From: Patescibacteria group bacterium
GTDB taxonomy: Bacteria > Patescibacteriota > Minisyncoccia > Portnoybacterales > GWB1-42-6
Direction of reading: 5' to 3'
Assembly (NCBI GenBank): GCA_018818145.1
Contig: JAHIST010000087.1
Span: forward strand, 1 to 38,775
Length of the DNA: 38,775 nucleotides
Shown here one piece after another: positions 1,169 to 36,609 of the stretch (the stretch's first letter is position 1; each line of letters begins with the position of its first letter). Made by a program: the position numbers and the translations under genes. The notes beneath the pieces were generated by a model that was given only the letters and a program-made list of their open reading frames with translations, made no database searches and was not told where the DNA came from.

Positions 1169-2992
1169 ATGCTTTGGCAATTTAAACCTAATGCGCCGGA
1201 GGAATTCATCAGGCAGTTTCCTGAATATCAACCGATAGTTTTGCAGCTGCTTTACAATCGCGGCTTGAGAACGCAACAGCAAATTGATGAATTTTTCAAT
1301 CCGGATTTTGAGGGGGATCTTCTGGATCCTTTTTTGATGTTGGGTATTAGCCAAGCGGTTAAGCGAATAAATAAAGCGATAAAAAAGAAAGAAAAAATCG
1401 CTATTTTTGGCGATTACGACTGCGATGGTGTCTGCGGTGCGGTTATTTTAAAAACAATTTTGGAGGAGCTAGGAGCTGATTTGAGCGGCGGCGTTTATAT
1501 ACCCGATCGGATAATTGAAGGTTATGGCCTGAATAACGAAGCGATAGAGAAGCTGGGTAAAGAAAAAGTTAATCTGATTTTAACGGTTGATTGCGGCATT
1601 TCCGACGTGGCGGAAGTTAAGTTAGCCAATTCGCTTGGCGTAGAAGTCATTATTGTTGACCACCATCGTTTGGGCAAAAAATTACCATCAGCCAAGGTCA
1701 TAATTGACCCTTGGCAGCCAAAAGATAAGTATCCTTTTAAGGAATTAGCCGGAGCGGGCGTGGCGTTTAAATTAGCGCAAGCCCTTCGACAAGCTCAGGG
1801 TAAAGCCCTTCAAAAAAATCAGGGTAAGCCGGGTTTGGATAATAAAATTTCTGAAGGCTGGGAAAAATGGCTGCTGGATTTGGTGGCGCTGGCCACGGTG
1901 GCTGATTGCGTGCCGGTTTTGGGGGAAAACCGCACGTTGGTGCACTACGGTTTGATTGTACTGGCGCAGACAAAAAGAGTCGGTCTACAAGAGTTAATGA
2001 AAGTGGCGCGGTTAAATCCCGTTTTTGAAGCCGAAAATCTTAAGACTAATTTAGACACTTATTCTTTAGGTTTTATTTTGGCGCCGCGGCTTAACGCGGC
2101 CGGACGAATGGACCATGCCAGCTTGGCGTTTCGTTTGCTTATGACCCAAGACTATCAGGAAGCCAAAGTTCTGGCCGAAAAAATTAATGAGCAAAATCAG
2201 CAGCGGCAGAAACTAACCGATAAAATAGTGGCTGAAGTAGAAACCCGGATTAAAAATTATCAGGCAGATAAAAATCAGCCCGTTGTCGTGGAAACAGATA
2301 AAAACTGGTCGCCGGGCGTGGTCGGCTTGGTTGCCGGCAAAATTGCCGACCGTTATCACCGCCCAGTTTTTATTTTCAAGGAAGACGAAAAAGTCAGCCG
2401 CGGCTCTGCCCGCTCCATACCCACTTTTGATATTATTGAGGCCATAGGCCAGTGCAGCCAATTGCTTAAGGAATTTGGCGGGCATCCGGGCGCGGCCGGC
2501 GTATCATTAGAAAATAAAAATCTTTCCGCGTTCAAAGAAAAAATAAACCAGATTGCCAGAGAAAAATTGAAGCCCGAAGATTTAATTCCCGCCGCGCAAA
2601 TAGATTCGGAACTGGAGCCAGCGGAGGTTAATTGGGAGTTGTTTGACGAACTGGAGCATCTTGAGCCCTTTGGGCGGGGAAATGACCCGCCAGTTTTTTT
2701 GTTAAAAAATCTGGAAATCGCCAATTTGCGGGTTGTCGGCAACGGCTCAAAACATTTGAAATTGGAGTTGAAAAGTGATAAATTAGCCAATAAGGTTTTT
2801 CACGCTATTGGTTTTAATCTGGCCGCCCGCCTGTCATCGCCTGCGGCTCAGACTATTGGCGGGCAAGCCAAAAACGGTAATGACAATTTAAAAACAGGCG
2901 ATAAAATTGATATTATTTTTGAACTGATAGCGGATGAGTGGAACGGGACGAGGAATTTACAGCTGAAAATAATAGATATAAAAAAATTATGA
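1169..2992 (+). CDS. recJ: single-stranded-DNA-specific exonuclease RecJ (DHH/DHHA1)
   Basis: Motifs DYDCDGVCG, VDCG, VDHH and GGHPGAAG. ATG 1169 (MLWQFKPNAPEEF) is preferred over the TTG 1154 of the ORF track. The stop TGA overlaps the ATG at 2989 (ATGA junction). Confidence 0.9.
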   Translation: MLWQFKPNAPEEFIRQFPEYQPIVLQLLYNRGLRTQQQIDEFFNPDFEGDLLDPFLMLGISQAVKRINKAIKKKEKIAIFGDYDCDGVCGAVILKTILEELGADLSGGVYIPDRIIEGYGLNNEAIEKLGKEKVNLILTVDCGISDVAEVKLANSLGVEVIIVDHHRLGKKLPSAKVIIDPWQPKDKYPFKELAGAGVAFKLAQALRQAQGKALQKNQGKPGLDNKISEGWEKWLLDLVALATVADCVPVLGENRTLVHYGLIVLAQTKRVGLQELMKVARLNPVFEAENLKTNLDTYSLGFILAPRLNAAGRMDHASLAFRLLMTQDYQEAKVLAEKINEQNQQRQKLTDKIVAEVETRIKNYQADKNQPVVVETDKNWSPGVVGLVAGKIADRYHRPVFIFKEDEKVSRGSARSIPTFDIIEAIGQCSQLLKEFGGHPGAAGVSLENKNLSAFKEKINQIAREKLKPEDLIPAAQIDSELEPAEVNWELFDELEHLEPFGRGNDPPVFLLKNLEIANLRVVGNGSKHLKLELKSDKLANKVFHAIGFNLAARLSSPAAQTIGGQAKNGNDNLKTGDKIDIIFELIADEWNGTRNLQLKIIDIKKL

Positions 2993-3024
2993 AAGTAACA
3001 ATTTTTACCGACGGCGGTTCGTGA
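2989..3024 (+). pseudogene. Relic 5' end of rnhA (11 codons then TGA)
   Basis: It encodes MKVTIFTDGGS*, against MKLVIFTDGGSRGNPG at 4159. 28 of 33 nt are identical, including a perfect 17-nt core ATTTTTACCGACGGCGG. Confidence 0.65.
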
Positions 3025-3234
3025 AGTCTGTTGGAGTCTGACTTCGGCAAGCCGTCTTATGAGAAAATCTAACGGCTCAACGGCGTTGAGCCGTTGAAGA
3101 TTGTTGCTTAATCTGAAAGTTTAAGATAACATCCCAACATTCTCAAGTTTGTAAGGATACTATGCCGACGCTGTATTGTTTAATTCGTACGAATGGGTAA
3201 ATGCAGTAAGGGGTTTGTAGTTGGGTGTAAATTA

Positions 3235-3263
3235 TTGTAAATATAGAGTTTTTATAGTATCAT
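3235..3263 (+). promoter_or_regulatory. Candidate sigma70-type promoter of the TA operon
   Basis: TTGTAA (3235-3240), a 17-nt spacer, then TATCAT (3258-3263), about 27 nt upstream of ATG 3290. AAGGTG lies 6 nt before the ATG. Confidence 0.3.
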
Positions 3264-3289
3264 TTAAGCAGTAGTAAAAGGTGATAAAT

Positions 3290-3787
3290 ATGGCTAAAAT
3301 CAACGAAAAAAAGTATAAAAATACCGTGCTTTTCTTTGCGAATAAGATCTGTAACGGCACCTTGGGGAAGCTTAAATTAATGAAGCTTCTCTACTATTTG
3401 GATTTTGATTTTTTTGAAAAATATGGCCGATCAATCACGGGCGACGAATATCTGCGTTTTGAGCACGGGCCTGTCCCGCGCATGGGAGAGAAGATTTTGA
3501 AGCAGATGCAGGGCAAAGAAATAAAAATTGTCAGCCGCAAGATGTCAAAAGGGTACAACAATCAGCAGCATATTGAGGCGACTAGAGAATTTAATCCGGC
3601 AGTTTTTACTAATGAGGAAATTTTGATGCTGGAAGAGATTGCTAACAAATGGGAAAGGTTCACTGGCGCGGAAATGAAAACGGCTAGTCACGGCGAAGCT
3701 CCTTGGATTGCCACAAAGCCCAATCAAGTCATTGATTATAATCTTACATACTATCGTAATAAATATGCCGAGATGGAGCGGCTCTAA
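3290..3787 (+). CDS. Panacea / DUF4065 (SocA-GepA-like) antitoxin-domain protein
   Basis: GKLKLMKLLYYLDFDFFEKYGRSITGDEYLRFEHGPVP matches the remembered DUF4065 signature (K-L-x-K-L-L-Y, Y-x-x-x-x-G-P-V). ATG 3290 with an SD-like AAGGTG is preferred over GTG 3281. Confidence 0.7.
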   Translation: MAKINEKKYKNTVLFFANKICNGTLGKLKLMKLLYYLDFDFFEKYGRSITGDEYLRFEHGPVPRMGEKILKQMQGKEIKIVSRKMSKGYNNQQHIEATREFNPAVFTNEEILMLEEIANKWERFTGAEMKTASHGEAPWIATKPNQVIDYNLTYYRNKYAEMERL

Positions 3788-3793
3788 TATGTT

Positions 3794-4135
3794 ATGGAAA
3801 TTTCTCGGCACCCTGATATTGAAAAAGATTTTCGCGCGTTGAAGCGTTTTGTCGCCCCAAAAGAGTCGCTTGAAGCATGGGAGCGACTTTTTTGTTTAAA
3901 AGGTCTGCGGGAAACTCCTGCCATTGACCAATTTCCCGGTTTTGGGCATCGAAAAATATTCAAAGGCCGCATTGTCCCTTTAAGAGAAAATGTTGGAAAA
4001 TCAAAAGGGCATCACGTCGTTTTTGAGATAGGTAGCGAAGACAAGTGCGTTGTTCTTGTGTTTTCTCGCCATGGTATATATCATAATGAGGCGGAATTAA
4101 TTGCATTAGCAAAAGACAGAATTGATTTAATTTGA
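3794..4135 (+). CDS. RelE/ParE-fold toxin-like protein (113 aa)
   Basis: It starts 6 nt after the upstream stop. GKSKGHHVVFEIGSEDKCVVLVFSRHGIYHNEAEL resembles the G-K-x-G-G-Y-R-V-I-Y ... K-x-E core of RelE/HigB-type toxins. Size and position fit a type II toxin. Confidence 0.5.
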   Translation: MEISRHPDIEKDFRALKRFVAPKESLEAWERLFCLKGLRETPAIDQFPGFGHRKIFKGRIVPLRENVGKSKGHHVVFEIGSEDKCVVLVFSRHGIYHNEAELIALAKDRIDLI

Positions 4136-4158
4136 TAAAGTTATAAGAAAAATTTGAT

Positions 4159-4590
4159 ATGAAATTAGTCATTTTTACCGACGGCGGGTCGCGCGGCAAT
4201 CCGGGGCCATCGGCCATTGGCGTCGTGATTGCCAACGAATCAGACGAGACCATCAAAAAATACAGTCAGGCAATTGGCGAAGCCACCAACAACGAAGCCG
4301 AATATCAGGCGGTGATTTTTGCGCTCAAAAAAACAAAAGCGCTTTTTGGCAAAGCTAAGGTAAAAGAAATGGAAATTGAAATCAGGACGGATTCAGAATT
4401 AATAGTCAGCCAGCTTAATCACCAGTTTAAAATTATGGAAAAAAATCTCCAGCCGCTTTTTTTGCAGGTCTGGAATTTAATGCTGGATTTTGGGCCGATA
4501 AAATTTACGGCAATTCCCCGCGAGCAAAACCGCGAAACAGACAGACTGGTCAATCGGGCGCTGGACGCCCAGCAACCGTTTTTGCTTTAG
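4159..4590 (+). CDS. rnhA: ribonuclease HI
   Basis: DEDD residues sit in typical contexts: FTDGGSRGNPG, NNEAEYQAVIFAL, IRTDSELIV, NRETDRLVNRAL. Confidence 0.85.
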   Translation: MKLVIFTDGGSRGNPGPSAIGVVIANESDETIKKYSQAIGEATNNEAEYQAVIFALKKTKALFGKAKVKEMEIEIRTDSELIVSQLNHQFKIMEKNLQPLFLQVWNLMLDFGPIKFTAIPREQNRETDRLVNRALDAQQPFLL

Positions 4591-4734
4591 GTTTAGGTTA
4601 GCCTTGCAACTAAAAATGCGTTGATGTATTATACACGTATTAAAAGGCAAATAAGCAAATTAAAGGGTTTACCGTAGAGAGTCTCTTTTAGGAAATTTTT
4701 AAAAGAATACTCTTGACAGTTAGCTAAAAATATT

Positions 4735-6141
4735 ATGATAAGGACAAAATATTTACCCCTACATCAGAGAGCCACAGGCGTAAGCCCGTGGTATGGGGGT
4801 TTAGTTTCTGGAGCCGGTTCAGCTTTTTTATTGGCAGCGGTTTTATTAATCGGGGGCGTATTTGCTCAAACTGCCGATACAACCGCGCCCTCTGCTATAG
4901 CTGATTTAGCCGTTTCTGCAACAACGGTTTCTTCGGTAGCCATGACCTGGACGGCGCCGGGAAACGATGGCGCGGTCGGCACTTCCACTAGCTATGATTT
5001 GCGCTATGCAACCTCGGTCATCACCGAAAGCACCTGGGCTTCTTCTACCCAGGCCGTTGGCGAGCCAACGCCTAAAATCGCCGGTAGCGTTGAAACAACG
5101 ATGGTTTCGGGTCTGTCTTCGTCCACGACTTACTATTTTGCCATAAAATCAAAGGACGAGGCGGGGAACGAGTCAGCTTTTTCCAATATAGCCAGCGGAA
5201 CAACTTTGGCTCCGCCTGCGCCTACTCCCACTCCAACACCTGCTTCAACGTCTGGCCTGACCTTTGAAATGAAAGTCACGCCCCGCACCCTAAACTTATC
5301 CAGCGAAGGCAAGTGGGTAACCGTACAACTGTATCTACCTTTTCTTTATAAGGCGAATCAAGTTGATATTTCTTCAGTAAGACTGAATGGCGTTTTTCCG
5401 CCTGATCCAAAATTCAGAGGCACTGATAATATTAATGATAATGACGATAAAAAACACGAAAAGAAAAAATCTTCTAATTTAGTTTTGAAATTTTCCCGCG
5501 AAGGCGTACAGGGTTTGGCTGATAGCTCTGCCAACAGCTCAGCCTTGGTTTTAACCCTAACCGGAAAGGTGAGTGATAAAGATTTTTCTGCCAGTGACAC
5601 CATTGTTGTTTTCAAAAGGATTGAGTTGGACGATGACGACGACGAAGATGATGAAGGAGATTTGGTTCAGGCAACCAGCTCTCCGAAAGTCTATATTATC
5701 CACAAGGGTCATAAACGCCATATTCCTTCTCCTCAGGCATTTGAACGCTTGAGGCTGCGATGGGAAAATATCAAAATAGTTGCTGAACAGGTGCTTAACG
5801 CTTTTCGGGAAGAAAATTTATTTAGAGCCAGCAATAGTCCGGATGTTTATCTCATAATTGGCGGGATGAAACGACATATTCTTTCTCCGGCGATTTTCGC
5901 TTCATATGGTTTTGACTGGGACGATATTACTATTGTCAGCTCGGCTGATTTGGCCGACTACCCCGACGTAAGCTTAATTCGCGCGGCCGGCGATGAAAAA
6001 GTTTATTTATTGAGCGGCGGTAAAAAACACTGGATTTCTTCATTGGCCGTTTTCAGCAAACACGGCTATAACTGGAACTCGGTTGTTATTATTAATTCAA
6101 CCGAAAAAGACGCCATTCCCGAGGGAGACAACGTTCAATAA
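4735..6141 (+). CDS. Secreted or anchored protein: FN3 domain, Pro/Thr linker, acidic tract, three C-terminal ~45-aa repeats
   Basis: There is an N-terminal hydrophobic segment (AFLLAAVLLIGGVFA). An FN3-like region runs VSSVAMTWTAPGNDG...YYFAIKSKDEAGNES. Further features are PPAPTPTPTP, DDDDDEDDEGD and three repeats of the type VYxIxxGxKRHIxSPxxFxxxGxxWxxIxIV. Confidence 0.7.
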   Translation: MIRTKYLPLHQRATGVSPWYGGLVSGAGSAFLLAAVLLIGGVFAQTADTTAPSAIADLAVSATTVSSVAMTWTAPGNDGAVGTSTSYDLRYATSVITESTWASSTQAVGEPTPKIAGSVETTMVSGLSSSTTYYFAIKSKDEAGNESAFSNIASGTTLAPPAPTPTPTPASTSGLTFEMKVTPRTLNLSSEGKWVTVQLYLPFLYKANQVDISSVRLNGVFPPDPKFRGTDNINDNDDKKHEKKKSSNLVLKFSREGVQGLADSSANSSALVLTLTGKVSDKDFSASDTIVVFKRIELDDDDDEDDEGDLVQATSSPKVYIIHKGHKRHIPSPQAFERLRLRWENIKIVAEQVLNAFREENLFRASNSPDVYLIIGGMKRHILSPAIFASYGFDWDDITIVSSADLADYPDVSLIRAAGDEKVYLLSGGKKHWISSLAVFSKHGYNWNSVVIINSTEKDAIPEGDNVQ

Positions 6142-6172
6142 AGTTAGCAAAAAAATCAGCAAGGATTTTTAT

Positions 6173-6201
6173 CCCCACACCTTTTTAAGGTGCGGGGTTT
6201 T
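6173..6201 (+). terminator. Intrinsic terminator after the FN3 gene
   Basis: CCCCACACC tttttaa GGTGCGGGG followed by TTTT, with one mismatch in a 9-bp stem. Confidence 0.5.
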
Positions 6202-6303
6202 ATCTCTCCGTTTTCAAACGGGGGGATTTTTGCCTTTTGGCTTTTATGGATTGTCCAAAGCTAAAAAGAGAGTTAAGATTAAGTTATAAATTCAGGCGAA
6301 AAC

Positions 6304-6984
6304 ATGAAAAAGCGACTTTTAATTTTTTTCCTTTGCGCAATTTCTTTTCTGGCGCTTTTTGAATTTTATATTTTATATCTTTATCCGCAGGATATTTCTT
6401 TGGGCGGTTATTTTTCCAGTATTTTGCAGTCATTGGTTGGCGGAGAATCAAACAAGCTTATAAGAATAAATCTTTACAATTACGCCATTGTTTTGTATGA
6501 AGATGGTAATTTTATTAAACAAGCCAGAATCTCCGGTATGGGAAATCCTAAATTTTCACCCACGCCCCAAGGAAGTTTTAAAATTTTATCAAAAGAAGTA
6601 AGGCATATTTCAGGTATCAACGGCGTAATTATGCCCTTAAGCCTTCGTTTTTATAGGGGTTATTATCTTCATGGTCTTCCTTTTACCCGTTCAGGCCAGC
6701 CGGTCAACACTGTCTATTCGCTGGGTTGTGTTAGATTAGGGCCCGGTCTGGATGAGGACGTTTATAACTGGGCGGAAATTGGTACTAAAGTAGAAATTTA
6801 TAAAGCGCGGTTGGTTAAGTCAGCCGAAGAGCCGGCAGTCTTTCTTTTGACGGAAGAGGGTTTTAAAGAGTGGATTCCAAATCCCGAAACATTTAATAAT
6901 CGGGGCTTTTTCTGGAAAGACATAGCTATTGTGCCCTTAGCGGAGATAAATAATTATCCCGAAGTTAGCGCTACAAAACTATAA
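6304..6984 (+). CDS. L,D-transpeptidase (YkuD domain) with a C-terminal repeat module
   Basis: An N-terminal TM segment is present. The catalytic signature is YYLHGLP...YSLGCVRLG (H-G ... S-x-G-C-x-R). The C-terminal VFLLTEEGFKEWIPNPETFNNRGFFWKDIAIV matches the repeats of the upstream gene. Confidence 0.85.
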   Translation: MKKRLLIFFLCAISFLALFEFYILYLYPQDISLGGYFSSILQSLVGGESNKLIRINLYNYAIVLYEDGNFIKQARISGMGNPKFSPTPQGSFKILSKEVRHISGINGVIMPLSLRFYRGYYLHGLPFTRSGQPVNTVYSLGCVRLGPGLDEDVYNWAEIGTKVEIYKARLVKSAEEPAVFLLTEEGFKEWIPNPETFNNRGFFWKDIAIVPLAEINNYPEVSATKL

Positions 6985-7001
6985 ATTCTGTTAAGAATTT
7001 G

Positions 7002-7868
7002 ATGAAAAAAATCTCGGTAATTTTAATTTTACTGATTTTTGTTGGGCTGGGTTTTTATTTCAGGGCCGACCTTTTAAATTTTTACGACCACTTGACGAAA
7101 AATTTTTCCGATATTGAAAAAATATCACTGGATCAGTTAGTCAAGGACATTCAAAAGCAGGTATCCGCGCCGCCGCCCCTGCGGCTAAATCAGGAAGAGT
7201 CGCTGGCGACTTTAACTAAATCAGTCGTTATTAAATGGACTAATCTTCAGCGCGCGGCCAACGGCGGGCTTTTGCCCCTGGCCTCAAACACCAAGCTCGA
7301 CGCCGCGGCTTTGGCTAAAGTCCAAGAGATGTTTAAAAATCAGTATTTTGAACATGTTTCTCCTGCGGGCGCCGGACCGGAGGATTTAGCAAAAAAATTC
7401 AGCTACAGCTTTGTCGCTTTTGGCGAAAATTTAGCATTGGGAAATTTTAAAGATGAGGAGGCTCTGGTTCAGGCTTGGATGGACAGCCCCGGCCACCGAG
7501 CCAACATTTTAAATACGCGTTATCGGGAAATAGGCGTAGCAGTGCTCAAGGGCGTTTTTGAAGGCCGGACAACTTGGATAGCTGTGCAGGAATTCGGTTT
7601 TCCGCTTGCAGCCTGTCCGCAACCGGACGCGGCGCTCAAAAGCCAGATTGAGTTTTATAAAAAGCAGGCTGACGATTTAATCTTGCTAATTGATGAGAAA
7701 CGCAAAGAAATTGAAAATACACGGTTTGACAGCCGCCGCCAATATAATCAGGCTGTGAGCCAATATAATGATTTAGTAGGCCAATATAATAATTTAGTTT
7801 CGCAGATTAAATTACTCATCAATAGCTACAACAGCCAAGTTTCTCAATTTAACTCTTGCGCCAGATAA
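7002..7868 (+). CDS. CAP/SCP (YkwD-like) domain protein with a coiled-coil tail
   Basis: An N-terminal TM segment is present. Motifs: FEHVSPAG, GENLALGN, AWMDSPGHRANILNTRYREIGVAV. The tail has a 3 x 21-nt tandem repeat (QYNQAVS / QYNDLVG / QYNNLVS) at 7738-7800. Confidence 0.8.
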   Translation: MKKISVILILLIFVGLGFYFRADLLNFYDHLTKNFSDIEKISLDQLVKDIQKQVSAPPPLRLNQEESLATLTKSVVIKWTNLQRAANGGLLPLASNTKLDAAALAKVQEMFKNQYFEHVSPAGAGPEDLAKKFSYSFVAFGENLALGNFKDEEALVQAWMDSPGHRANILNTRYREIGVAVLKGVFEGRTTWIAVQEFGFPLAACPQPDAALKSQIEFYKKQADDLILLIDEKRKEIENTRFDSRRQYNQAVSQYNDLVGQYNNLVSQIKLLINSYNSQVSQFNSCAR

Positions 7869-7869
7869 G

Positions 7870-7971
7870 CCCCGTTAGAAATTATTGAATAATTTATTTT
7901 AGTACGCTAATTTATCTTAAGAACGGAGCGCTTTTATTGGATAATAAATTACTTGATAATTTCTAACGGGG
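7870..7971. repeat. ~100-nt imperfect palindrome closed by CCCCGTTAGAAATT / AATTTCTAACGGGG
   Basis: The 14-nt ends (7870-7883 and 7958-7971) are perfect reverse complements, and the inner arms are partly complementary. It starts 2 nt after the CAP gene stop. Confidence 0.6.
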
Positions 7972-7980
7972 TAAATAATT

Positions 7981-9159
7981 ATGATTCAGCGCGGAATTGC
8001 CACATTTGGTTTGGATTACGGCACCTGCCCCCGGTGGCTTTTTGAACGCATGGTAAAATTGGGCAGAGAAATGGCGCAGGTGATTGTGGCGGAGGAAGGG
8101 CCGGATGAGTTTATCCGCCGGCTCGGAGACCCGGCGTGGTTTCAGTCTTTGGGCACAGTTTTGGCGTTTGACTGGAATGCTTCGGGCCTGACCACAATTT
8201 TAACCGCCGCGCTCAAAGAAGCTATTCGCGGCCAGGAATACGATCTAGGCATTTTTATTTGCGGCGGCAAAGGTAAAACTTCGCTTAAAACGCCGCAAGA
8301 AATTCAGACCTGGAGCGAGCGGATAAATTTTGCGCCTTCGGCTGCGAACGCCTTAATTTATAATTCCCGCATGGCCGCCAAAGTGGACAGCGCGCTGGTG
8401 CAGGACGGTTTTCAAATTTACCACCACGCATTTTTTTTCACCAAAAAGGGCGCCTGGACAGTAGTACAGCAGGGCATGAACGCGGTTAATCAAACCGCGC
8501 GCCGCTATCACTGGCATTCAAAAAATATTAAAGATTTGGTTTGCGAACCGCACTCGGGCATTGCCTCGCAGGCCAAAGTCAGAAACATTCTGGATTTAAC
8601 TGCGCAAAAAAGCGCGACCAATCGCCAGGCCAGCGCAGAGTTGGTTCTGCAGGGGTTTAGCGCTTTGATGAAAGATTTGGTGTTGTTAAGCAAGCATTAC
8701 ACGCCTTTGTCGCAGACGGCGGAGGTAGCCAAGGAAACATCCTTTGGCCAGCAGCGGTTGAAATTATTGAATCTGGTTAGCGTAGAATTTAAATCACATC
8801 CAACAGTTGGCGAGGATTTTTCCAAAAGCAAATATTTGCAAAAAATTCTTTGGAAGATTTGCGACCAGCAGCCGGCTAATTATGAAAAATTGCTGGCAAT
8901 GGAGGGAGTGGGGCCAAAAACAATGAGGGCGCTGGCGCTGGTGGCAGAAGTTCTTTACGGCGCCCGGCCCTCCTATGAGGATCCGGCGCGCTACAGCTTT
9001 GCCCACGGGGGAAAAGACGGTACGCCCTATCCGGTTGACCGGCCGACCTACGACCAGACTATCGCCGCGATGAAAAAATATGTCAGTCGGGCCAAACTGT
9101 CGCCAGGCGACAAATCGCGGGCTTTGCGGTCTTTGGTTAAAAGCGGCGAGCCTTTTTAA
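7981..9159 (+). CDS. DUF763-like protein with a helix-hairpin-helix motif
   Basis: The N-terminal GLDYGTCPRWLFERMVKLGREMA resembles my memory of the DUF763 family opening. An HhH-like MEGVGPKTMRALALVAE is present. No function is inferred. Confidence 0.45.
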   Translation: MIQRGIATFGLDYGTCPRWLFERMVKLGREMAQVIVAEEGPDEFIRRLGDPAWFQSLGTVLAFDWNASGLTTILTAALKEAIRGQEYDLGIFICGGKGKTSLKTPQEIQTWSERINFAPSAANALIYNSRMAAKVDSALVQDGFQIYHHAFFFTKKGAWTVVQQGMNAVNQTARRYHWHSKNIKDLVCEPHSGIASQAKVRNILDLTAQKSATNRQASAELVLQGFSALMKDLVLLSKHYTPLSQTAEVAKETSFGQQRLKLLNLVSVEFKSHPTVGEDFSKSKYLQKILWKICDQQPANYEKLLAMEGVGPKTMRALALVAEVLYGARPSYEDPARYSFAHGGKDGTPYPVDRPTYDQTIAAMKKYVSRAKLSPGDKSRALRSLVKSGEPF

Positions 9160-9245
9160 AAATCGCTAAATGGTTTTTGCGGCTGTGGATGACAATTTTG
9201 CTCTATTTGTTATAATAATCTTAAATAATCCAGCCTTACAATCTT

Positions 9246-9347
9246 ATGAAAGTAAAAAGTATTATTGGGATAATTATTATTATATTAATTGCCGCGGCGG
9301 TTATAGCTGCTTTTTATTATTTCTTGGGCAAACAATTACCCCGTTAG
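9246..9347 (+). CDS. Possible 33-aa single-TM peptide
   Basis: MKVKSIIGIIIIILIAAAVIAAFYYFLGKQLPR*. It is followed by the terminator at 9381-9411 and is below the ORF-track size cut-off. Confidence 0.3.
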   Translation: MKVKSIIGIIIIILIAAAVIAAFYYFLGKQLPR

Positions 9348-9380
9348 TTATTCATATATAAACCATCTGTTTCTTATTTT

Positions 9381-9411
9381 AAAACCCCCATTTATTCAAC
9401 AGGGGTTTTTA
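9381..9411. terminator. Bidirectional intrinsic terminator (small ORF on plus, rnpB on minus)
   Basis: AAAACCCC ... GGGGTTTT stem with a T-run on both strands. It lies about 20 nt beyond the 3' end of rnpB. Confidence 0.6.
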
Positions 9412-9432
9412 TTGTCCGATTTTTAATCAGAG

Positions 9433-10069
9433 AATCAGCTTTCTAATGGGGCAAGCAAGTCTATAAGCCGAATTCTGTCCTTCGGCTCACTTCGTTTCGC
9501 CTCAGGATAAATTCCTAAAAGGGTTTACCCTGAGCTTGCAAAGCAAGCGAAGGGATAATCATCTGTCTGGGTCCCGCATTGCTGCGGGACTCAAGCGATC
9601 TACTTTTCTTATGAGATTCAAATTTTCAATCTCATAGTTTGATCTTGCACCCGGTAAGGATTTTGCCGTTTCACTCCCAAAGTTATCCTTTGGGACTCGC
9701 CCTATCTCCGTTTTTGCGGAGCGGGCGTCCCGACTTTTTCAAGTTGCGGGGCGTCTCTGTTCGCACCTCTATCCCGCCCGCTTCGCCAAGCTTTAGCGAG
9801 GCGAGTATTTGCGGGACGACGGCCGTTAGCCGCTACCTTTTTACCCCTCACTTGGATCACTGGAGATGAAATAATATATTTATTTTATTCTTGTTCATCT
9901 GCAAGGAACCAAGTGAGGGGGAGTGTTCGGACTTTCCTCCCCCCACTTGCTATTAGTCTAGTTTATATTGTTTTAAGATCAACAATATTTTTTGGAAAAA
10001 TCTTATTACTTGACTGATAGCAAGTGGGGGGCGATTACCCGACTTACTTGCCCTATTAGAAAGCTGATT
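9433..10069 (-). ncRNA. rnpB: RNase P RNA, bacterial type A, unusually long
   Basis: The minus strand carries GGAGGAAAGTCCGAAC (P4 5' strand) and ACAGAATTCGGCTTATAG (P4 3' strand), with covariation relative to E. coli. It also has GCTAACGGCC, GCGAACAGAGACG, AGTGAAACGGC, CCGGGTGCAAGATCAAA, GCTTGAG and CAGACAGATGATTATCC. The terminal 29 nt pair with each other (9433-9461 with 10041-10069). Mature ends may be internal to this extended P1. Confidence 0.9.
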
Positions 10070-10116
10070 TTAAAGGAGCGGGACATTAATATTATTAGCT
10101 TATTTTTGCTGCTTGT

Positions 10117-10233
10117 CAACCCCGTTAGAGATTTTCCAAAGAAGCTGGTATTTTATTAACAATAGCCGTAGGCGGAATCGCGATATAAATTAAAGGATAA
10201 AATAAACATAGCTGAATCTCTAACAGGGTCAAC
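10117..10233. repeat. ~115-nt palindromic element closed by CCCCGTTAGAGATT / AATCTCTAACAGGG
   Basis: The inverted ends (10120-10133 and 10215-10228) have one mismatch. The end motif is the same as at 7870-7971 and around tRNA-Thr. Confidence 0.5.
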
Positions 10234-10281
10234 CCCCTTGATATTAGACAGCCTTTAGAGTTAAAATGAATTTAAATTGGT

Positions 10282-20430: not shown

Positions 20431-23400
20431 ATGCCAAATCAAGATTTAAATAAATTTATAAAAGAAGCTTTAGCTTCCGGTAAAACGCTGGAAAATATCA
20501 AGACTGAGCTAACGGGCACGGGATGGGATGAAAAGGAAATTAGCGCCGCGACAAAAGAATTTATAAATCCAGCGGGCGATTTTTTTCATAAGAATAAAAA
20601 ATTACTTATATTTTTTGGGATAATCGCTGTACTTATCGCTGCGGGAATTTTAGGATGGTATCTTTATCCCAATTTTCAAAAACCAGCGCAGGCAAAATTT
20701 AGTCTTGAAGCGGTCAATGGCGACCAGGTTGGAATTGAACCCCAAACAACTTTTTTACTGAAAAGTTCGGAAAATATTTCTGAATCCGACGTGAAAAAAA
20801 TCGTGAAATTTGATCCGGAGATAGCCTTTAGCGTTAAAAAAATAAAATCGGTCCTAGGAGCTATTACCGAAACGATTCAGGCTAAAGCAGTCTATGAAAT
20901 AAAACCGCAGGATTCTTTGGCGCAAAGGCAGGTTTACCAGGTAAAAATTAATGACTCCGATTTTGCCGAGCACGAATACGGCTGGGCGTTTCAAACAAAG
21001 GCGGTTTTTCAGGTAACCCAAACGCATCCCAGAGACAAAGCGACAAGCGTTCCTTTAAATTCCGGCATTGAGATTATTTTTAACCGGGATAATCCGATCG
21101 GTCCAGAAAATAATTTTGAAATAAGTCCCAAAGTTGACGGTACCTTTGAAATAAACAGAAACAATACTTTAGTTTTCCTGCCAAAAAATTTGACTGCGGG
21201 AACGGTTTACACTATAACCATCAAGAAAGGATTAAGGGCTCAAAACACAGACGATACTTTGGTTGAAGATTTTTCTTTTGCTTTTGAGACCGGCTCTGGA
21301 AATTATGGAGAATATTCGTATTTCAGCTTTTCTGAAAATTTAATTGATTCTCTCCCGGAAATTAAACCGAGTCTTCAGATTTATTCCTATAATATTAATT
21401 TGGAAAATTTAAAGGCTAATGTTTATAGGTTCCCCGGGGCTGACGCATTCTTAAAATCTTATGTGGATAGCAGAAATTGGAATTGGTATTGGACAAATTA
21501 TTATTGGAAGGCTGGCAAAAACGATATCCCAAGTAACACTCAAAAAGTCGTATCTTTTAGGCCGGAAATTTCCACGGTTCAATATAATAATTTTTTTGAA
21601 ATTCCGCAGGTACTTGATGCGGGTTTTTACTTGGTAGATGTTGAATATTCCGGGGGACGACATGAACAGGCCTGGCTTCAGATAAATCCGCTTTCTCGTT
21701 ATTTTTCTGTAAGTCCAGATAAGAGTTTTGTCTGGATTCAGGATTTTAATAAAAAAGAGCCGCAAAAGGATGTAAAAATTAGCTATGTCGGCGGGGGCGA
21801 AGAAAAAAATTTAGGCGTGACCAATCAGGACGGATTGCTGGAATTTGCGACTCCCGATTCGCTAAAAAATCAGGACATAAAAGATTTTAAACCTAAATTC
21901 TTCAAAGCTCAAAAAAGCGGATTACCCGAGTTTCTAATCGCCATCACCGACCGCTGGGGGTATCGCTCAAGTGTTTCCCAGGGGAATCTTTACTGGAATT
22001 ATATTTCTACCGATCGCGCGGTATATCAGATATCGGATTCAATCAAATATTGGGGCGTAGCTAAGGGCCGCCAGTCTGACATAAAAGAAAAGATGGTGAA
22101 TGTCGGGCTTTACTCTTATGGATATTATTTTTATGGCTACGATTCTTCGCAAGATATCCCGGTTGTTTCGCAGGACGTTTTAGTTTCTCAATTTGATACG
22201 GTTGAAGGCGAGCTGAATTTTAAAGGGCTTTCCCCCGGCTATTATGTTTTGCAGGTTAAAAACGGCAAAAACATAATTTCATCCGTTTCGGTTGAGATTA
22301 TGACTTATACCAAGCCGGCTTATGAAATCAAAATTACCCCTTCTAAAGAGGCTGCGTATGCCGGCGAAAACATTATTTTCCGCGTTGCGGCCAATTTTTT
22401 TGACGGAACGCCAGTATCTAAGCTGCGTTTGAAATACTCCGGTTACTGGGATTCGTCTTTTAGCGGAGAATTAATATTAAATGGAAACGGCGAAGGGGAA
22501 GTGACTTATACGCCGCAATATATAGAAACAGACAGTTTTTATTATCCCAGAAGCCTTGAATTGACATTTCAGCCGGTTTTATCAGAGGAGGGAGAAATTT
22601 GGGGCAGCGCCAGCGTTTTGGTCTTTGGTCCGAATATTTATTTGCAGGCATTCCAAGAAAATCAGTCCGGAGACAATTATAAAATTACTGCCAAGACAAA
22701 CAGAATTGACATAATCAAGGGTTCAATTTCAGAAAATAATTATCAGCCGGAATATATCGGTGAGCCGGCTTCTAATTTTACGCTTTCGGCAGAGTTAATT
22801 AAAACGGTTTATGTCAGCCGGGAAACGGGTCAGTATTACGATCCGATTAATAAGGTTGTCAGAAAAATTTATGATTACAGCTCCTATGACCAAAGTATTG
22901 AGCAGTTTTCGGGGCAGACGAACAGCTCCGGCGAGTGGATTTTTACCAAAACCGTGCCGCAGGAACAAAATGCCAGCTATAGAATGATTTTTTCCGGGCA
23001 TGATAATCAGGGCAGAAGAGTCAAGCAAACTGTCTATTTTTACCGGCCATATTATAACGAATCTTCCGACTTCTCAATTTCCCTGAAGGGTAACAAGGCA
23101 GATAACGAGGAATATTCCATCGGTGAGAAGATAAATCTTGAGACAAAAATAGAGCGGGGCGACAAACCCGCTAATCCAAAGATTTTATATTACAGATTTA
23201 AAAACAGCATTGAAGAGGTTTTTGTTTCGGGCAATTATCAGATTCAGGAGGAATTTGGGACGGATTTTGTGCCTTCGGAACAATATATGGCGGTAATGCT
23301 TGGTCCCAGTGGTTTTGTGGAGACTAATTCTGTTATGATTCCTTTCAAAAAAAGCGACCGGAAGCTGAATATCCAAATCAACCCCGACAAAGAAAGCTAT

Positions 23401-25908
23401 CGGCCGGGCGATCAAATAAAAATTTCTTTAACAATAAAGGATAAAGACGGCAAACCGGTTTCGGCTCAAGTTAATGTCGCGGCAGTGGATGAAGCACTTT
23501 TTCATATTCTGTCTTATAACTGGCGCCAGGATATTCTAATCGGACTTTATCAGCGTATTTATAATATGCCTCTTTCTAATGGTTCTCAATACAATTTACT
23601 CAAAACTGAGGGTGCTGAAAGTGGCGGCTGTTTCGCCGCTGGCACGCAAGTTTTAATGGCGGACAAAAGCTCTAAGCCGATTGAAGAAATAAAAATCGGA
23701 GATAAAATTACCACCTTTACCAGCGAAAAAGATCATAATTTAAAGTCGGCAATCGTTCAGGGAATTTCTGTTCACAAGGTGGAGGGCTATCTGATTATTA
23801 ACGGTCGTCTCAAAGTCACGCCGGAACATAAAATATTTTTGAATGGCGCATGGAATTATGCCGGTGTGGCCAAGGCGGGCGACGAGCTAATTACGAGCAA
23901 AGGACAAAAAGAAAAAATTAATTTCCTTGTGTTTGAAAAAAAACAGACTTTTGTTTATAACATAGTGGTTGATTCGCACCATACCTATTTCGCTGACGGC
24001 CTTTATGTTCATAATGCCGAAAAAGGAGGCGCCAGGACGAATTTTGTTGATTTAGCTTTATTTCAAACGCTAAAAGCTGACGGCGGCCAGGCCCAGATAA
24101 GCTTTAAGGCTCCGGACAATATCACAAGCTGGCGTACAACTGTGCTGGCTTACGATTCGGACGGAATGAAGGCCGGTCAGTCGGAAAAATTAATTAAAGT
24201 TTCTTTGCCATATTTCGTGGATGCTGTCCTTGGCAGTTACTATCTTGAAGGCGATAATCCTTACTTGCGGCTGCGCTCTTTTGGCACCGATTATAATTTT
24301 TCAGAACCGGTTGATTATTCAATAACCTGTGAAGCTTTGTCTTTTAACCAAAGTCAGATAAGCAAGGACAATAGTGTTTATATTCCGCTTGGCAAACTGA
24401 AAGAGGGTGAATATGATTTTACGATTTCGGGAAAACAAAATAAGCTTCAGGACTCGCTGGTAAGAAGTATCAAAGTTCTGAAAACATTTTTTCAACAACC
24501 ACAAACTGCTGTTTATCCGCTTTCAGAAGACCTTTCTAATTTAGAAGGCAACAGCGACGGATTTACAAAGTTAGTTTTTATGGATCAGGGCAAGGGGAAA
24601 TTTTATAAATCTTTGCGCGAGAATTCTTATGGGGACGGAATCAGATCCGACCAGTCAACAGCGGCTTTTTTCTCTCAAAAAATATTAGCCGATTATTTTG
24701 ACCAAAAACCACCAGAGAACAATTTAGATTTGAGCGGCTATCAGGTGCCAGATGGCGGATTGGCTTTGTTTCCTTACGGCGATAGCGACCTTGAGCTTTC
24801 GGCAAAGCTTGCTGATTTGGCGCCTGACTATGTTTTTCAGGATCAGCTGGCAAAATATTTTTATGCTTCTTTGAACGACAAAAAAACCGATATTCACCGT
24901 ATCGCCAAAGCGCTTTACGGCTTAGCGGGATTAAGAGAGCCGGTTCTGAATAAAATTTATAGCGTCAAAGACAGCAGCGACTTGAATTTTGAAGATAAAA
25001 TTTATGTCGCTTTGGCTCTAGCCAGATTGGGAGATAAAGAAAATGCGCGCCAGATTTATGAAGCCCAAATTAGGCCGCAGGTGCGTTTTCAGGGGTCGGA
25101 AGCTTGGCTGGCGGAGGAAACTGACCAGACAAAGCAAGTTAAGCTTACTTCAGCTATTGCTGTTTTGGCCGCGCATCTAGATTCGGGCGACACTGATCCC
25201 CTGTGGAATTATATCTCCAAACACTACCCAATAAGGGATCTAAACATAATTGAACAAATTATTGTAGCTCAAAATGAGCTGCCAAAATTCCAAAAACAAC
25301 AAGCCGAGTTTTCGTACGAAGCCGGAAACAAAAAGGGACAGGTGAAACTTCAGAATGGAAAAACTTTTACACTCAATCTTTCCAAAGAAGAGCTTAATTC
25401 AATCAAATTTTCCGGAATAGAAGGGGACATCAGCGCAGCCAGTTTTTATGAAAAATACACTAATTCAGACGAGCTGACAAAAAATCGGGAACTGAGCTTA
25501 GACCGGCAGTACTTGGTTAACAGCGTTACGACCAATTCATTCCCAGAGGGCAGTATTGTGCTGGTCAGATTAACGCCGAAATTTGCAGCAACGGCTATGG
25601 ACGGTCCTTATCAGATAATTGATTATCTGCCGGTGGGCTTACGGCCGATTACCCAACTTTATAAAGCGGGATTAGGATACGGTTGGGATTTGTGCGATAC
25701 GACTTGGTATCCGACGAAGATTGTCAATAACGCCGTTTACTTTAATATTTCAAAAGATTTCAACGGTAAATGTTCCCAGCGGACCTTAAATTATTACGCC
25801 CGCGTCGTTTCCAAGGGGGATTTTCAGGCAAACCCGGCGATAATTCAATCATTAAAAGACTTGGAAAGCTTAAATGTTTCGGCCAAAGATGATGTAAGCA
25901 TAAAATAG
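20431..25908 (+). CDS. Alpha-2-macroglobulin-like giant surface protein (1825 aa), thioester-less, with an embedded Hint domain
   Basis: An N-terminal TM anchor follows a ~55-aa cytoplasmic head. Repeated beta-rich (MG-like) segments are present. VNVAAVDEALFHIL is the A2M_N_2-type motif. RTNFVDLALFQ...APDNITSWRTTVLAYDSDG is the A2M-domain motif (compare human RKYFPETWIW...PDTITEWKA). There is no CxEQ anywhere: the protein has only 4 Cys, none in a CxEQ context. Confidence 0.8.
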   Translation: MPNQDLNKFIKEALASGKTLENIKTELTGTGWDEKEISAATKEFINPAGDFFHKNKKLLIFFGIIAVLIAAGILGWYLYPNFQKPAQAKFSLEAVNGDQVGIEPQTTFLLKSSENISESDVKKIVKFDPEIAFSVKKIKSVLGAITETIQAKAVYEIKPQDSLAQRQVYQVKINDSDFAEHEYGWAFQTKAVFQVTQTHPRDKATSVPLNSGIEIIFNRDNPIGPENNFEISPKVDGTFEINRNNTLVFLPKNLTAGTVYTITIKKGLRAQNTDDTLVEDFSFAFETGSGNYGEYSYFSFSENLIDSLPEIKPSLQIYSYNINLENLKANVYRFPGADAFLKSYVDSRNWNWYWTNYYWKAGKNDIPSNTQKVVSFRPEISTVQYNNFFEIPQVLDAGFYLVDVEYSGGRHEQAWLQINPLSRYFSVSPDKSFVWIQDFNKKEPQKDVKISYVGGGEEKNLGVTNQDGLLEFATPDSLKNQDIKDFKPKFFKAQKSGLPEFLIAITDRWGYRSSVSQGNLYWNYISTDRAVYQISDSIKYWGVAKGRQSDIKEKMVNVGLYSYGYYFYGYDSSQDIPVVSQDVLVSQFDTVEGELNFKGLSPGYYVLQVKNGKNIISSVSVEIMTYTKPAYEIKITPSKEAAYAGENIIFRVAANFFDGTPVSKLRLKYSGYWDSSFSGELILNGNGEGEVTYTPQYIETDSFYYPRSLELTFQPVLSEEGEIWGSASVLVFGPNIYLQAFQENQSGDNYKITAKTNRIDIIKGSISENNYQPEYIGEPASNFTLSAELIKTVYVSRETGQYYDPINKVVRKIYDYSSYDQSIEQFSGQTNSSGEWIFTKTVPQEQNASYRMIFSGHDNQGRRVKQTVYFYRPYYNESSDFSISLKGNKADNEEYSIGEKINLETKIERGDKPANPKILYYRFKNSIEEVFVSGNYQIQEEFGTDFVPSEQYMAVMLGPSGFVETNSVMIPFKKSDRKLNIQINPDKESYRPGDQIKISLTIKDKDGKPVSAQVNVAAVDEALFHILSYNWRQDILIGLYQRIYNMPLSNGSQYNLLKTEGAESGGCFAAGTQVLMADKSSKPIEEIKIGDKITTFTSEKDHNLKSAIVQGISVHKVEGYLIINGRLKVTPEHKIFLNGAWNYAGVAKAGDELITSKGQKEKINFLVFEKKQTFVYNIVVDSHHTYFADGLYVHNAEKGGARTNFVDLALFQTLKADGGQAQISFKAPDNITSWRTTVLAYDSDGMKAGQSEKLIKVSLPYFVDAVLGSYYLEGDNPYLRLRSFGTDYNFSEPVDYSITCEALSFNQSQISKDNSVYIPLGKLKEGEYDFTISGKQNKLQDSLVRSIKVLKTFFQQPQTAVYPLSEDLSNLEGNSDGFTKLVFMDQGKGKFYKSLRENSYGDGIRSDQSTAAFFSQKILADYFDQKPPENNLDLSGYQVPDGGLALFPYGDSDLELSAKLADLAPDYVFQDQLAKYFYASLNDKKTDIHRIAKALYGLAGLREPVLNKIYSVKDSSDLNFEDKIYVALALARLGDKENARQIYEAQIRPQVRFQGSEAWLAEETDQTKQVKLTSAIAVLAAHLDSGDTDPLWNYISKHYPIRDLNIIEQIIVAQNELPKFQKQQAEFSYEAGNKKGQVKLQNGKTFTLNLSKEELNSIKFSGIEGDISAASFYEKYTNSDELTKNRELSLDRQYLVNSVTTNSFPEGSIVLVRLTPKFAATAMDGPYQIIDYLPVGLRPITQLYKAGLGYGWDLCDTTWYPTKIVNNAVYFNISKDFNGKCSQRTLNYYARVVSKGDFQANPAIIQSLKDLESLNVSAKDDVSIK
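23629..24015 (+). other. Hint / bacterial-intein-like domain (residues 1067-1195 of the A2M-like protein)
   Basis: Block A is CFAAGTQVLMADKS, block B is VTPEHKIF (T-x-x-H), and blocks F/G are VYNIVVDSHHTYFADGLYVHN. It is 129 aa with no endonuclease insert. The residue after HN is Ala. Confidence 0.8.
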
Positions 25909-35768: not shown

Positions 35769-36608
35769 ATGGACTTTAAACTTTCAACAAAAATTATTAT
35801 TGGTGATAGCCGCGAGATGAAAGAGGTTCCCAATGATAGTGTTCATCTCGTTGTTACTTCTCCACCATATTTTAACGCTAAAACATATAGCGATGATTTT
35901 TCGGGAAAAGACTTAGGCAATATTAACGATTACAAAATATGGAAAGATGAGATAAAAAAAGTTTGGAGTGAATGTATAAGGGTTTTACAGCCCGGCCGAA
36001 GGTTGTTTATTAATATAATGAATCTACCCCTTAAATCAAATGGTAAAGATGTTTTTAGAACTTTAAATATCGTCGGGCATACAGTAGATATGTGTGAGGA
36101 TTTGGGATTTATTTTTAAGAGAGAAATTATTTGGCACAAAACCAATGGTGTTCGGGCGCATTTTGGCACCTATCCTTATCCAGGGGGGATTTTAATAAAT
36201 AATATGCACGAGCAGATTTTGGAATTTGAAAAACCCAAAGGGAATGGTTCAAAATATGACCATCTTTCAAGAGAAACAAAAGAAGCATCAAAAATAAATA
36301 AAGATTTCTGGCTATTATTAAAAAATACTGATGTTTGGTTAATGAAGCCTTATAAAAGCGGCACAAGAGAGCATTTGGCGCCATTTCCTGTTGAATTACC
36401 GGTAAGGCTTATAAAGGCTTATTCTTACATAACAGAAACAGTTTTAGATCCATTTGGTGGTATGGGGACAACCGCAAAAGCGGCAATTTCAGAAAAACGT
36501 AATTCAATAATTTACGAAATTAATAAATCATTTTTGCCGTTAATAAAATCTAGTATTAGCGATAATCTATTTAACAAAATAAAAAGAGAAATAATCTATC
36601 AAAAATAA
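35769..36608 (+). CDS. DNA methyltransferase, N4/N6 beta class (SPPY motif IV before motif I)
   Basis: VVTSPPYFN is motif IV; SPPY is more typical of N4-cytosine enzymes. Also LAPFPVELPVRLIKAYS and VLDPFGGMGTTAKAA (motif I). Confidence 0.9.
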   Translation: MDFKLSTKIIIGDSREMKEVPNDSVHLVVTSPPYFNAKTYSDDFSGKDLGNINDYKIWKDEIKKVWSECIRVLQPGRRLFINIMNLPLKSNGKDVFRTLNIVGHTVDMCEDLGFIFKREIIWHKTNGVRAHFGTYPYPGGILINNMHEQILEFEKPKGNGSKYDHLSRETKEASKINKDFWLLLKNTDVWLMKPYKSGTREHLAPFPVELPVRLIKAYSYITETVLDPFGGMGTTAKAAISEKRNSIIYEINKSFLPLIKSSISDNLFNKIKREIIYQK

Positions 36609-36609
36609 T

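Follow-up and report, generated by a model that had tools for sequence, protein, structure and literature searches.

At many hotspots of horizontal gene transfer (HGT) there is no integrase; their content turns over as the flanking core genes recombine, most of all in species that can be transformed (Oliveira et al. 2017, PMC5635113). Core defense hotspots have also been described (PMC10250203). We analyzed a 38,775-nt stretch of DNA (contig JAHIST010000087.1 of assembly GCA_018818145.1, positions 1 to 38,775, forward strand; hereafter the window) in which a 1.17-kb segment at 3022–4191, carrying a toxin–antitoxin (TA) gene pair, lies between recJ and rnhA. As at those hotspots, recJ and rnhA bracket cargo that differs among relatives—nothing, a TA pair, a restriction–modification (RM) island with a TA pair, or single open reading frames (ORFs)—with no mobility gene present and with rnhA itself apparently recombining. 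The difference lies in the joint: the crossover here would fall within the first 33 nt of the flanking gene, a stub of that gene is duplicated, and the cargo brings its own gene start. A simple double crossover in the flanking genes gives no such duplication of stub and start.

Campbell-type integration and homology-facilitated illegitimate recombination (HFIR) offer further comparisons: single crossover of a recircularized fragment duplicates the homologous segment, whereas HFIR usually combines an insertion with a deletion (PMC3240628). Like a Campbell-type product, the insert is bracketed by a duplicated shared segment, with one copy joined to the host on each side; the duplication here is 33–34 nt with a 17-nt perfect core, against 109–950 bp in the described cases, and a circular donor is hypothetical. 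HFIR after transformation (de Vries & Wackernagel 2002 and Prudhomme et al. 2002, as those studies are cited in PMC5361080 and PMC3240628) uses one conserved anchor, which here would be rnhA, and leaves the other end variable, a pattern that fits the constant right and variable left junctions among relatives. As the citing papers present it, HFIR normally deletes recipient DNA; the classical signature of insertion plus recipient deletion does not describe this locus, where 33 nt are duplicated and nothing is deleted. An illegitimate joint of this kind is also expected to carry 3–10 bp of microhomology. In type VI secretion system (T6SS) effector/immunity arrays and Rhs/contact-dependent inhibition (CDI) displacement arrays (PMC5361080), modules likewise recombine through a conserved part of a gene and leave orphan stubs. 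Those stubs are 3′ ends accompanied by orphan immunity genes, whereas here the stub is a 5′ end and the housekeeping gene stays functional.

Integrative elements of the SXT/R391 type, which insert in prfC, replace the 5′ end of their target gene, and cis-mobilizable elements are integrase-less, att-flanked remnants. The locus resembles both in its 5′-end insertion with a new start supplied and in the near-identical short core repeats at its two ends, and it resembles cis-mobilizable elements in containing no integrase. It differs from both in that left ends vary among relatives, the segment spans only 1.17 kb, and a TA pair is all it carries; we know of no integrase or parent element for an rnhA cassette. 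The locus is a variant on hotspot turnover combined with 5′-end-replacing insertion, not a categorically new system or a new kind of mobile element.

The duplicated rnhA start and its empty counterparts

The longest direct repeat returned by a repeat search of the region pairs 2988–3021 with 4158–4191 on the + strand: 29 of 34 nt are identical (85%), at a spacing of 1170 nt. The left copy starts at ATG 2989, reads ATGAAAGTAACAATTTTTACCGACGGCGGTTCG over 2989–3021, and ends after 11 codons at a TGA (3022–3024). The right copy reads ATGAAATTAGTCATTTTTACCGACGGCGGGTCG over 4159–4191 and runs on into an intact RNase HI gene of 143 amino acids (aa), rnhA (4159–4590, + strand; Pfam RNase_H and RVT_3). 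An initial annotation, made from the sequence by itself, had described a duplicated rnhA start with a 17-nt perfect core, and the structure reads as described: the core, ATTTTTACCGACGGCGG, occurs exactly twice in the window (3001–3017 and 4171–4187), where chance would give 0.22 matches with as many as three mismatches allowed. No further copy of the core, and no second copy of the adjoining noncoding DNA, was found in the window or in the loci of recJ relatives. The five mismatches between the repeats lie at positions 7, 10, 11, 12, and 30, four of them clustered within 6 nt (codons 3–4; P = 0.03 against uniform placement). Stub and live start share ATTTTTACC, which is found in no relative and points to a recent event in the window lineage or to gene conversion between the two copies.

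The left copy had been read as the original rnhA start, now dead, and unoccupied junctions bear this out. The stop codon of recJ, which encodes the single-strand DNA exonuclease (1169–2992, + strand; Pfam DHH, DHHA1, and RecJ_OB; gene call on a second assembly, L001), sits within an ATGA overlap with the stub. The same overlap joins recJ to rnhA in two relatives, L007 (recJ 6007–7764, rnhA 7761–8231; RecJ 70% identical to that of the window) and L175 (recJ 103–1143, rnhA 1140–1610). A further empty site, from run X2, which also holds the filled site, is a 362-nt contig that passes from the last 14 nt of recJ straight into an intact rnhA (..GGCGG GAGCCGTGGCAATCC..), ~87% identical to the window rnhA. 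The recJ-ATGA-rnhA arrangement that the initial annotation had proposed to look for in related genomes or metagenome reads is thus present in both, and comparison of these sites shows an ancestral state in which recJ and rnhA overlap by ATGA. Because empty sites exist in L007, L175, and the 362-nt contig, the reading of the segment as a 1.17-kb insertion into the first 33 nt of rnhA is supported.

The structure is real and occurs in at least three near-identical strains, because several independent runs and a second assembly reproduce it. Mismatch-free contigs, independent and from different runs and years, span the left junction in X1 (2810–3158), X2 (2965–3155), and X7 (3001–3236) and the right junction in X1 (3129–4517) and X2 (3129–5400); L001 covers both, with 16 differences from the window in 14.5 kb. 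Runs were examined as assembled contigs, which drop rare variants, and among these contigs no 1170-nt skip, as an excision product would show, was found. Contigs from X2 and X4 join the stub end (3021) directly to rnhA codon 47 (4297), an in-frame skip of 1275 nt (1170 + 105) whose short side is only 21 nt; this join may reflect either the alignment or a variant that lacks 35 codons.

RecJ relatives place the host, an uncultured bacterium, in Candidatus Portnoybacteria (candidate phyla radiation, CPR/Patescibacteria) from groundwater; a protein search for closer RecJ relatives gave a best identity of 65%. The window reads pgk, recJ, the insert, rnhA, an fn3 protein, YkuD, CAP, DUF763, Bac_transf, and glycosyltransferases. 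Across Parcubacteria, rnhA keeps its place after recJ (L004, L005, L008, and L010–L015), and L004, L008, L011, L013, and L014 each carry one unrelated ORF between the two genes. Locus L148 (tpiA, pgk, recJ, island, rnhA, and further on Bac_transf) holds a 5.6-kb RM/HNH/S24/NYN/TA island that starts at the last codons of recJ, without a stub. Its 4.6-kb portion to the left of the same TA pair (L148 4299–8862) encodes an MmeI-like RM enzyme, an HNH protein, a LexA-like Peptidase_S24 protein, and an NYN-domain protein. A search for a decayed stub at the left edge of this island gave a sole 9-nt match that is not significant (P = 0.09) and no relative of the 33-mer. The NYN gene forms the left boundary in both L148 and L144, without a stub, and a membrane-protein gene does so in L146; in the closest rnhA relative, L150/L151, a reverse-transcriptase-like ORF lies directly upstream of rnhA. 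That these two core genes enclose differing cargo from relative to relative, with no mobility genes, shows the recJ|rnhA junction to be a variable, integrase-less hotspot. No recombinase or mobility gene was found in the window or within 10 kb on either side of the L148 locus; for the window, where the initial annotation had also reported none, this holds for all ORFs of at least 110 aa scanned against Pfam and for the precomputed Pfam hits on L001.

Two of these neighborhoods carry additional features. In L151 (2–346) and L150 (1–118), the gene that precedes rnhA has an end like that of a reverse transcriptase (..QLHSDKIQIRKYHQGIDFLGYVV..), and the arrangement may be a reverse transcriptase–RNase H pairing; the L151 rnhA is 89% identical in nucleotides, and a 16-bp perfect hairpin (GCGACGTGCGACGTCC..GGACGTCGCACGTCGC) occupies L151 347–377, just before the rnhA ATG. 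Downstream of recJ on the Portnoybacteria contig L003 lies a unit resembling a miniature inverted-repeat transposable element (MITE; 2389–2567), with inverted repeats CGTGTGATATGAAATTC / GAATTTCACATCACGCG and a flanking direct repeat TAATGCTCCAAA; no rnhA occurs within the next 800 nt.

Right arm, TA cargo, and noncoding element

The right side of the insert recurs among relatives. A 23-nt spacer from the toxin stop to the rnhA start (4136–4158, + strand) is 88–90% identical in L148, L143, L144, L145, and L146, and the same toxin C-terminus (..DRI(D/N)LI), spacer, and rnhA start follow the TA pair in L148/L142, L143, L144, L145, and L146. The spacer belongs to an rnhA-specific right arm of the cassette that begins at ~4103 and is missing from TA copies in other contexts. 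Synonymous divergence (dS) between the window and L148 is 1.64 for pgk, 2.45 for recJ, 1.43 for rnhA, and 1.41 for Bac_transf, against 0.49 for PanA, the antitoxin gene, and 0.49 for the toxin; against L145, the toxin gives 0.44 and rnhA 1.96. Because TA values of 0.44–0.49 stand against host values of 1.4–2.5, the unit of TA pair, spacer, and rnhA start was exchanged after the lineages split. By this measure, the comparison shows a cassette passed between Portnoybacteria-like lineages long after their split, yet at the same place. Identity profiles run at 80–95% through toxin, spacer, and rnhA start and then drop to 65–78%.

The live gene start appears to be imported. Its first 16 nt equal the L148-type start at 16 of 16 positions (L148/L143/L144), a match that the stub, L150, L145, and L007 lack; beyond them, the gene comes nearest to L150 (87% nucleotide identity, dS 0.57). 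Because the opening matches the TA-linked start while the remainder is nearest L150, the proposal that the live start came with the cassette, and that the rest of rnhA has a different history, is supported, in agreement with the initial annotation's view that the functional gene uses a start supplied by the insert. Neighboring genes diverge further from L150 than rnhA does (YkuD dS 1.17 and Bac_transf 1.33, against 0.57), a sign, in this small sample, that the flanking core gene rnhA has itself recombined; its 5′ end is mosaic. Region 4171–4217 is nucleotide-conserved over many community rnhA genes (depth 46–52x, against 3.4–10x in the flanks), so the rnhA core can, by its conservation, serve as a cross-lineage homology anchor.

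The cargo consists of an antitoxin gene, PanA (3290–3787, + strand; 165 aa; Panacea/SocA domain, PF13274, E = 2.8e-20, residues 30–139), followed after 6 nt and in the same orientation by a toxin gene (3794–4135, + strand; 113 aa), an order kept in all loci examined. The 113-aa toxin has no family match in Pfam, NCBIfam, or PADLOC; its AlphaFold2 model (predicted local distance difference test, pLDDT, 90.8) returned HigB, YafQ, and YoeB toxins as top Foldseek matches (template modeling, TM, score ~0.6; probability 1.0), predicting a HigB/RelE-type fold. By domain, pairing, and predicted toxin fold, the two genes are assigned to the type II TA systems with a Panacea antitoxin. In PanA–PanT (Kurata et al. 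2022, PMC8832971), a Panacea antitoxin likewise lies directly upstream of a small toxin gene; the present toxin differs in being placed by predicted structure only. The insert had been said to hold a TA pair and 256 nt of noncoding DNA. The pair stands, and the length becomes 265 nt with the antitoxin starting at ATG 3290, the equivalent of the homologues' start (MAKINEKK); 256 nt applies only with GTG 3281.

More than 500 PanA homologues (73–92% identity) and more than 370 toxin homologues (64–84%) occur across CPR phyla, in Uhrbacteria, Giovannonibacteria, Komeilibacteria, Taylorbacteria, Niyogibacteria, and others, whose RecJ proteins are 33–47% identical to that of the window; judged by this distribution, the TA pair is mobile across CPR. 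No PanA relative was found on IMG/VR viral contigs. In TA copies elsewhere (L137, L138, L140, L147, and L152), nucleotide homology extends only from ~3232–3287 to ~4102–4125, with unrelated flanks and no rnhA arm, and no direct repeats surround the copies in L137 and L140. In L138 (Uhrbacteria), a 30-nt direct repeat (29/30; 2572–2601 / 4886–4915) brackets a 235-aa ORF and the PanA–toxin pair, and a ~190-nt repeat (2350–2545, 3735–3925) precedes both gene units. A metatranscriptome from the same study, X5, yielded mismatch-free contigs on pgk, recJ, and rnhA (4305–4518): the organism and its rnhA are transcribed. TA-gene transcripts were absent from the X5 contigs, which cannot exclude expression.

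Upstream of the TA pair lies a hairpin-rich noncoding element (3022–3215, + strand), delimited by its fold, by excess depth, and by a 92%-identical copy of 3085–3206 at L152 5740–5861, upstream of another PanA–toxin pair in an unrelated context. It contains an inverted repeat at 3023–3028/3040–3045 (hairpin A) and further hairpins at ~3106–3125 and 3131–3158. In six metagenome runs of separate studies (X2, X3, X4, X6, X10, and X11), ~3035–3158 is covered 5–15 times as deeply as the flanks, an excess that stems from many related, non-identical contigs. Many metagenomes from groundwater, biofilm, and sediment contain relatives of the element (~120–190 nt, core 3035–3158), and a metatranscriptome contains a related copy; IMG/VR returned only chance hairpin matches. 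A conserved TA-operon leader follows (3232–3289, + strand), identified by promoter scan and kept in L146 and L152, with a promoter-like site (TTGTAA-17-TATCAT, 3235–3263) and a Shine-Dalgarno-like AGGTGA.

The initial annotation's 11-bp perfect hairpin is also real. This hairpin B, AACGGCTCAAC-GGC-GTTGAGCCGTT (3071–3095, no strand assigned), has arms at 3071–3082 / 3084–3095 that are 100% complementary and form a perfect stem of 11–12 bp. The stem occurs in more than 120 metagenome contigs, which have nothing else of the sequence in common, at a median of 40 nt after the stop codons of genes of every kind (recA, ruvB, L20 (rplT), sigma-70, and some TA genes). It is lengthened by at least 4 bp of non-conserved complementary bases in 29% of cases, against 2% in controls. 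Because the stem follows housekeeping and accessory genes alike, hairpin B reads as a generic palindrome, terminator-like or of the repetitive extragenic palindrome (REP) type, and not as a cassette-specific att- or attC-like site or boundary marker. Among its copies (AACGGCTCAA..TTGAGCCGTT), the loop and the extended stem vary. Four copies lie between TA and defense-like genes in L079 (78–103, 864–889, 3086–3110, and 4075–4106), an arrangement that is not general.

Several known classes of element were set aside. A scan of 3022–3289 against Rfam for known RNA elements or introns (E up to 10) gave only two chance-level matches; a group I or group II intron has, besides, a split target gene, and the rnhA 5′ end is duplicated, not split. 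An integron gene cassette does not fit: the hairpin is 25 nt long, sits on the 5′ side of the genes, and also follows housekeeping genes such as recA, ruvB, and rplT, with no Rfam match and no integrase. Transposons, insertion sequences, and MITEs are discounted by the lack of terminal inverted repeats at 3022/4191, by an imperfect, coding 33-nt repeat, and by the absence of a transposase.

How the segment was joined to rnhA

We see about an even chance that 3022–4191 is horizontally acquired DNA joined by host recombination in the conserved rnhA core at an integrase-less hotspot. Donor DNA, most likely from a relative already bearing the TA pair upstream of rnhA, would be taken up and would pair with the recipient through the nucleotide-conserved stretch encoding IFTDGGSRGNPG (the TDGGS-coding core). 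The host's own recombination functions would then make the joint, with no dedicated recombinase required. This could be a single crossover of a circularized fragment bearing ~33 nt of rnhA, whose geometry duplicates the shared segment, or an event anchored by homology on one side only, with the non-homologous end joined 33 nt into rnhA; if the 362-nt empty-site contig and a 188-nt contig of X2, described below, carry the same rnhA allele, the crossover would lie in GACGGCGG. The outcome would be a dead 11-codon stub, still tied to recJ, and a live rnhA that is now read downstream of the TA operon; the TA pair probably stabilizes the insert by addiction. A more specific proposal, which we consider unlikely though worth stating, is that a family of recombinase-free TA cassettes in CPR bacteria homes to rnhA by means of a short copy of the TDGGS catalytic-motif codons that acts as a homology handle: after DNA uptake, such a cassette would insert before a related rnhA, replace its start, leave a stub, and persist by addiction.

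Several points weigh against host recombination. A stretch of 17–33 nt is very short for a RecA-dependent crossover, and classic HFIR yields deletions, not duplications (PMC3240628). Breakpoint tests inside rnhA, over 33 nt, went in the expected direction and were not significant (Fisher P 0.09–0.19). The donor, the shape in which its DNA arrived, and a host competent for natural uptake are all hypothetical. The 188-nt X2 contig, which matches window 3010–3045 with two mismatches, shows this left junction too (..GACGGCGGTTCG|TGAAGTCTGTTGGAGTCTGACTTC), preceded by another rnhA allele, ATTTACACT (L148-like, IYT), and continues into an L146-like leader in place of the window's noncoding element. 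A recombinase with a fixed cutting point would be expected to leave one joint behind different alleles, and later homologous exchange of the recJ-side flank would also yield this pattern. The left junction may, moreover, be a true element end, because the homology of one or two other copies of the noncoding element begins exactly at 3022–3023; others diverge at 3028, 3035, or 3040.

These last points favor the site-specific integration into a gene's 5′ end that the initial annotation had proposed, which we treat as a real but lesser possibility: a non-autonomous, cis-mobilizable-like cassette whose attP mimics the rnhA start would recombine at the 17-nt core through a recombinase encoded elsewhere, with the stub as attL and the live start as attR. 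The predicted circle junction is ..GATATGAAATTAGTC-core-TTCGTGAAGTC.., that is, toxin end and spacer followed by ATGAAATTAGTC-core-TTCG into TGAAGTC. The perfect core of the direct repeats with its allele-specific flanking bases, empty sites in relatives, and a cassette-linked rnhA 5′ end common to L148-type loci all agree with it. An insertion and an imported start survive from this proposal; a dedicated element is its less probable part. The right end is the same in five loci, but L148/L144 (an NYN gene and no stub) and L146 have other left ends, and only the 188-nt contig repeats the left junction. TA copies elsewhere have neither the rnhA arm nor common ends, no recombinase was found over the ranges given above, inverted repeats and arm-type sites are missing, and the hairpin is generic.

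The same right edge invites the thought that the cassette is what an internal deletion left of a larger, L148-like 5.6-kb RM/HNH/S24/NYN/TA island, with the stub as its original left edge. L148 does carry the same TA pair, spacer, and rnhA edge at this locus with extra cargo on the left, and turnover at the junction is evident, but we judge this improbable: the L148 island begins in the last codons of recJ with no stub beyond the nonsignificant 9-nt candidate, the window leader is unrelated to that of L148 and related to those of L146 and L152, and nothing in 3022–3289 resembles RM, NYN, or S24 genes. A single ancient insertion, inherited vertically in all TA–rnhA lineages with the likeness of stub and live start kept by gene conversion, would explain why several lineages share the right junction, and the lineage-specific ATTTTTACC in both window copies is consistent with conversion. 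It is nonetheless still harder to credit, as TA dS values of 0.44–0.49 are three to five times below the host-gene values, that of rnhA among them, the site is empty or otherwise filled in relatives whose rnhA is at least as close, and a neutral stub of such age should have decayed. An assembly artifact or chimera, which the initial annotation had named as able to undo its reading, can be practically dismissed: although the conserved rnhA core recurs through the community and Logan contigs end close to it, both junctions lie in mismatch-free contigs of several independent runs and in two assemblies.

Other window features and biological meaning

Elsewhere in the window, the 1825-aa product of 20431–25908 resembles alpha-2-macroglobulin and contains a Hint/PT-HINT (intein-like) domain at residues 1062–1195. 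At 35769–37728, a gene for an N6/N4 DNA methylase precedes a 372-aa ORF that matches no Pfam family, and the two may form an RM pair. Short intergenic repeats downstream of the CAP-domain gene (7865–7975) are 91–96% shared with L152 10692–10802, where they adjoin a Phage_integrase gene in an otherwise unrelated contig. The interval 9160–10281 comprises 1.1 kb with no ORF of at least 110 aa, parts of which (9452–9845) are 82–96% conserved in L150/L151 on the opposite strand.

CPR bacteria (Patescibacteria) have tiny genomes in which few mobile elements can be recognized, and they are believed to rely on taking up DNA; to our knowledge, their acquisition of defense and addiction genes is poorly documented. 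The recJ|rnhA locus shows one acquisition route at base-pair resolution, with empty, TA-only, and island-filled states comparable at a single junction. The insert supplies a replacement start for a neighboring housekeeping gene and leaves behind a datable stub. One PanA/HigB-like pair circulates over many CPR phyla (73–92% protein identity), and no vector for it is apparent. Should the homology-handle idea prove true, selfish cassettes would have a simple, recombinase-free means of targeting conserved genes.

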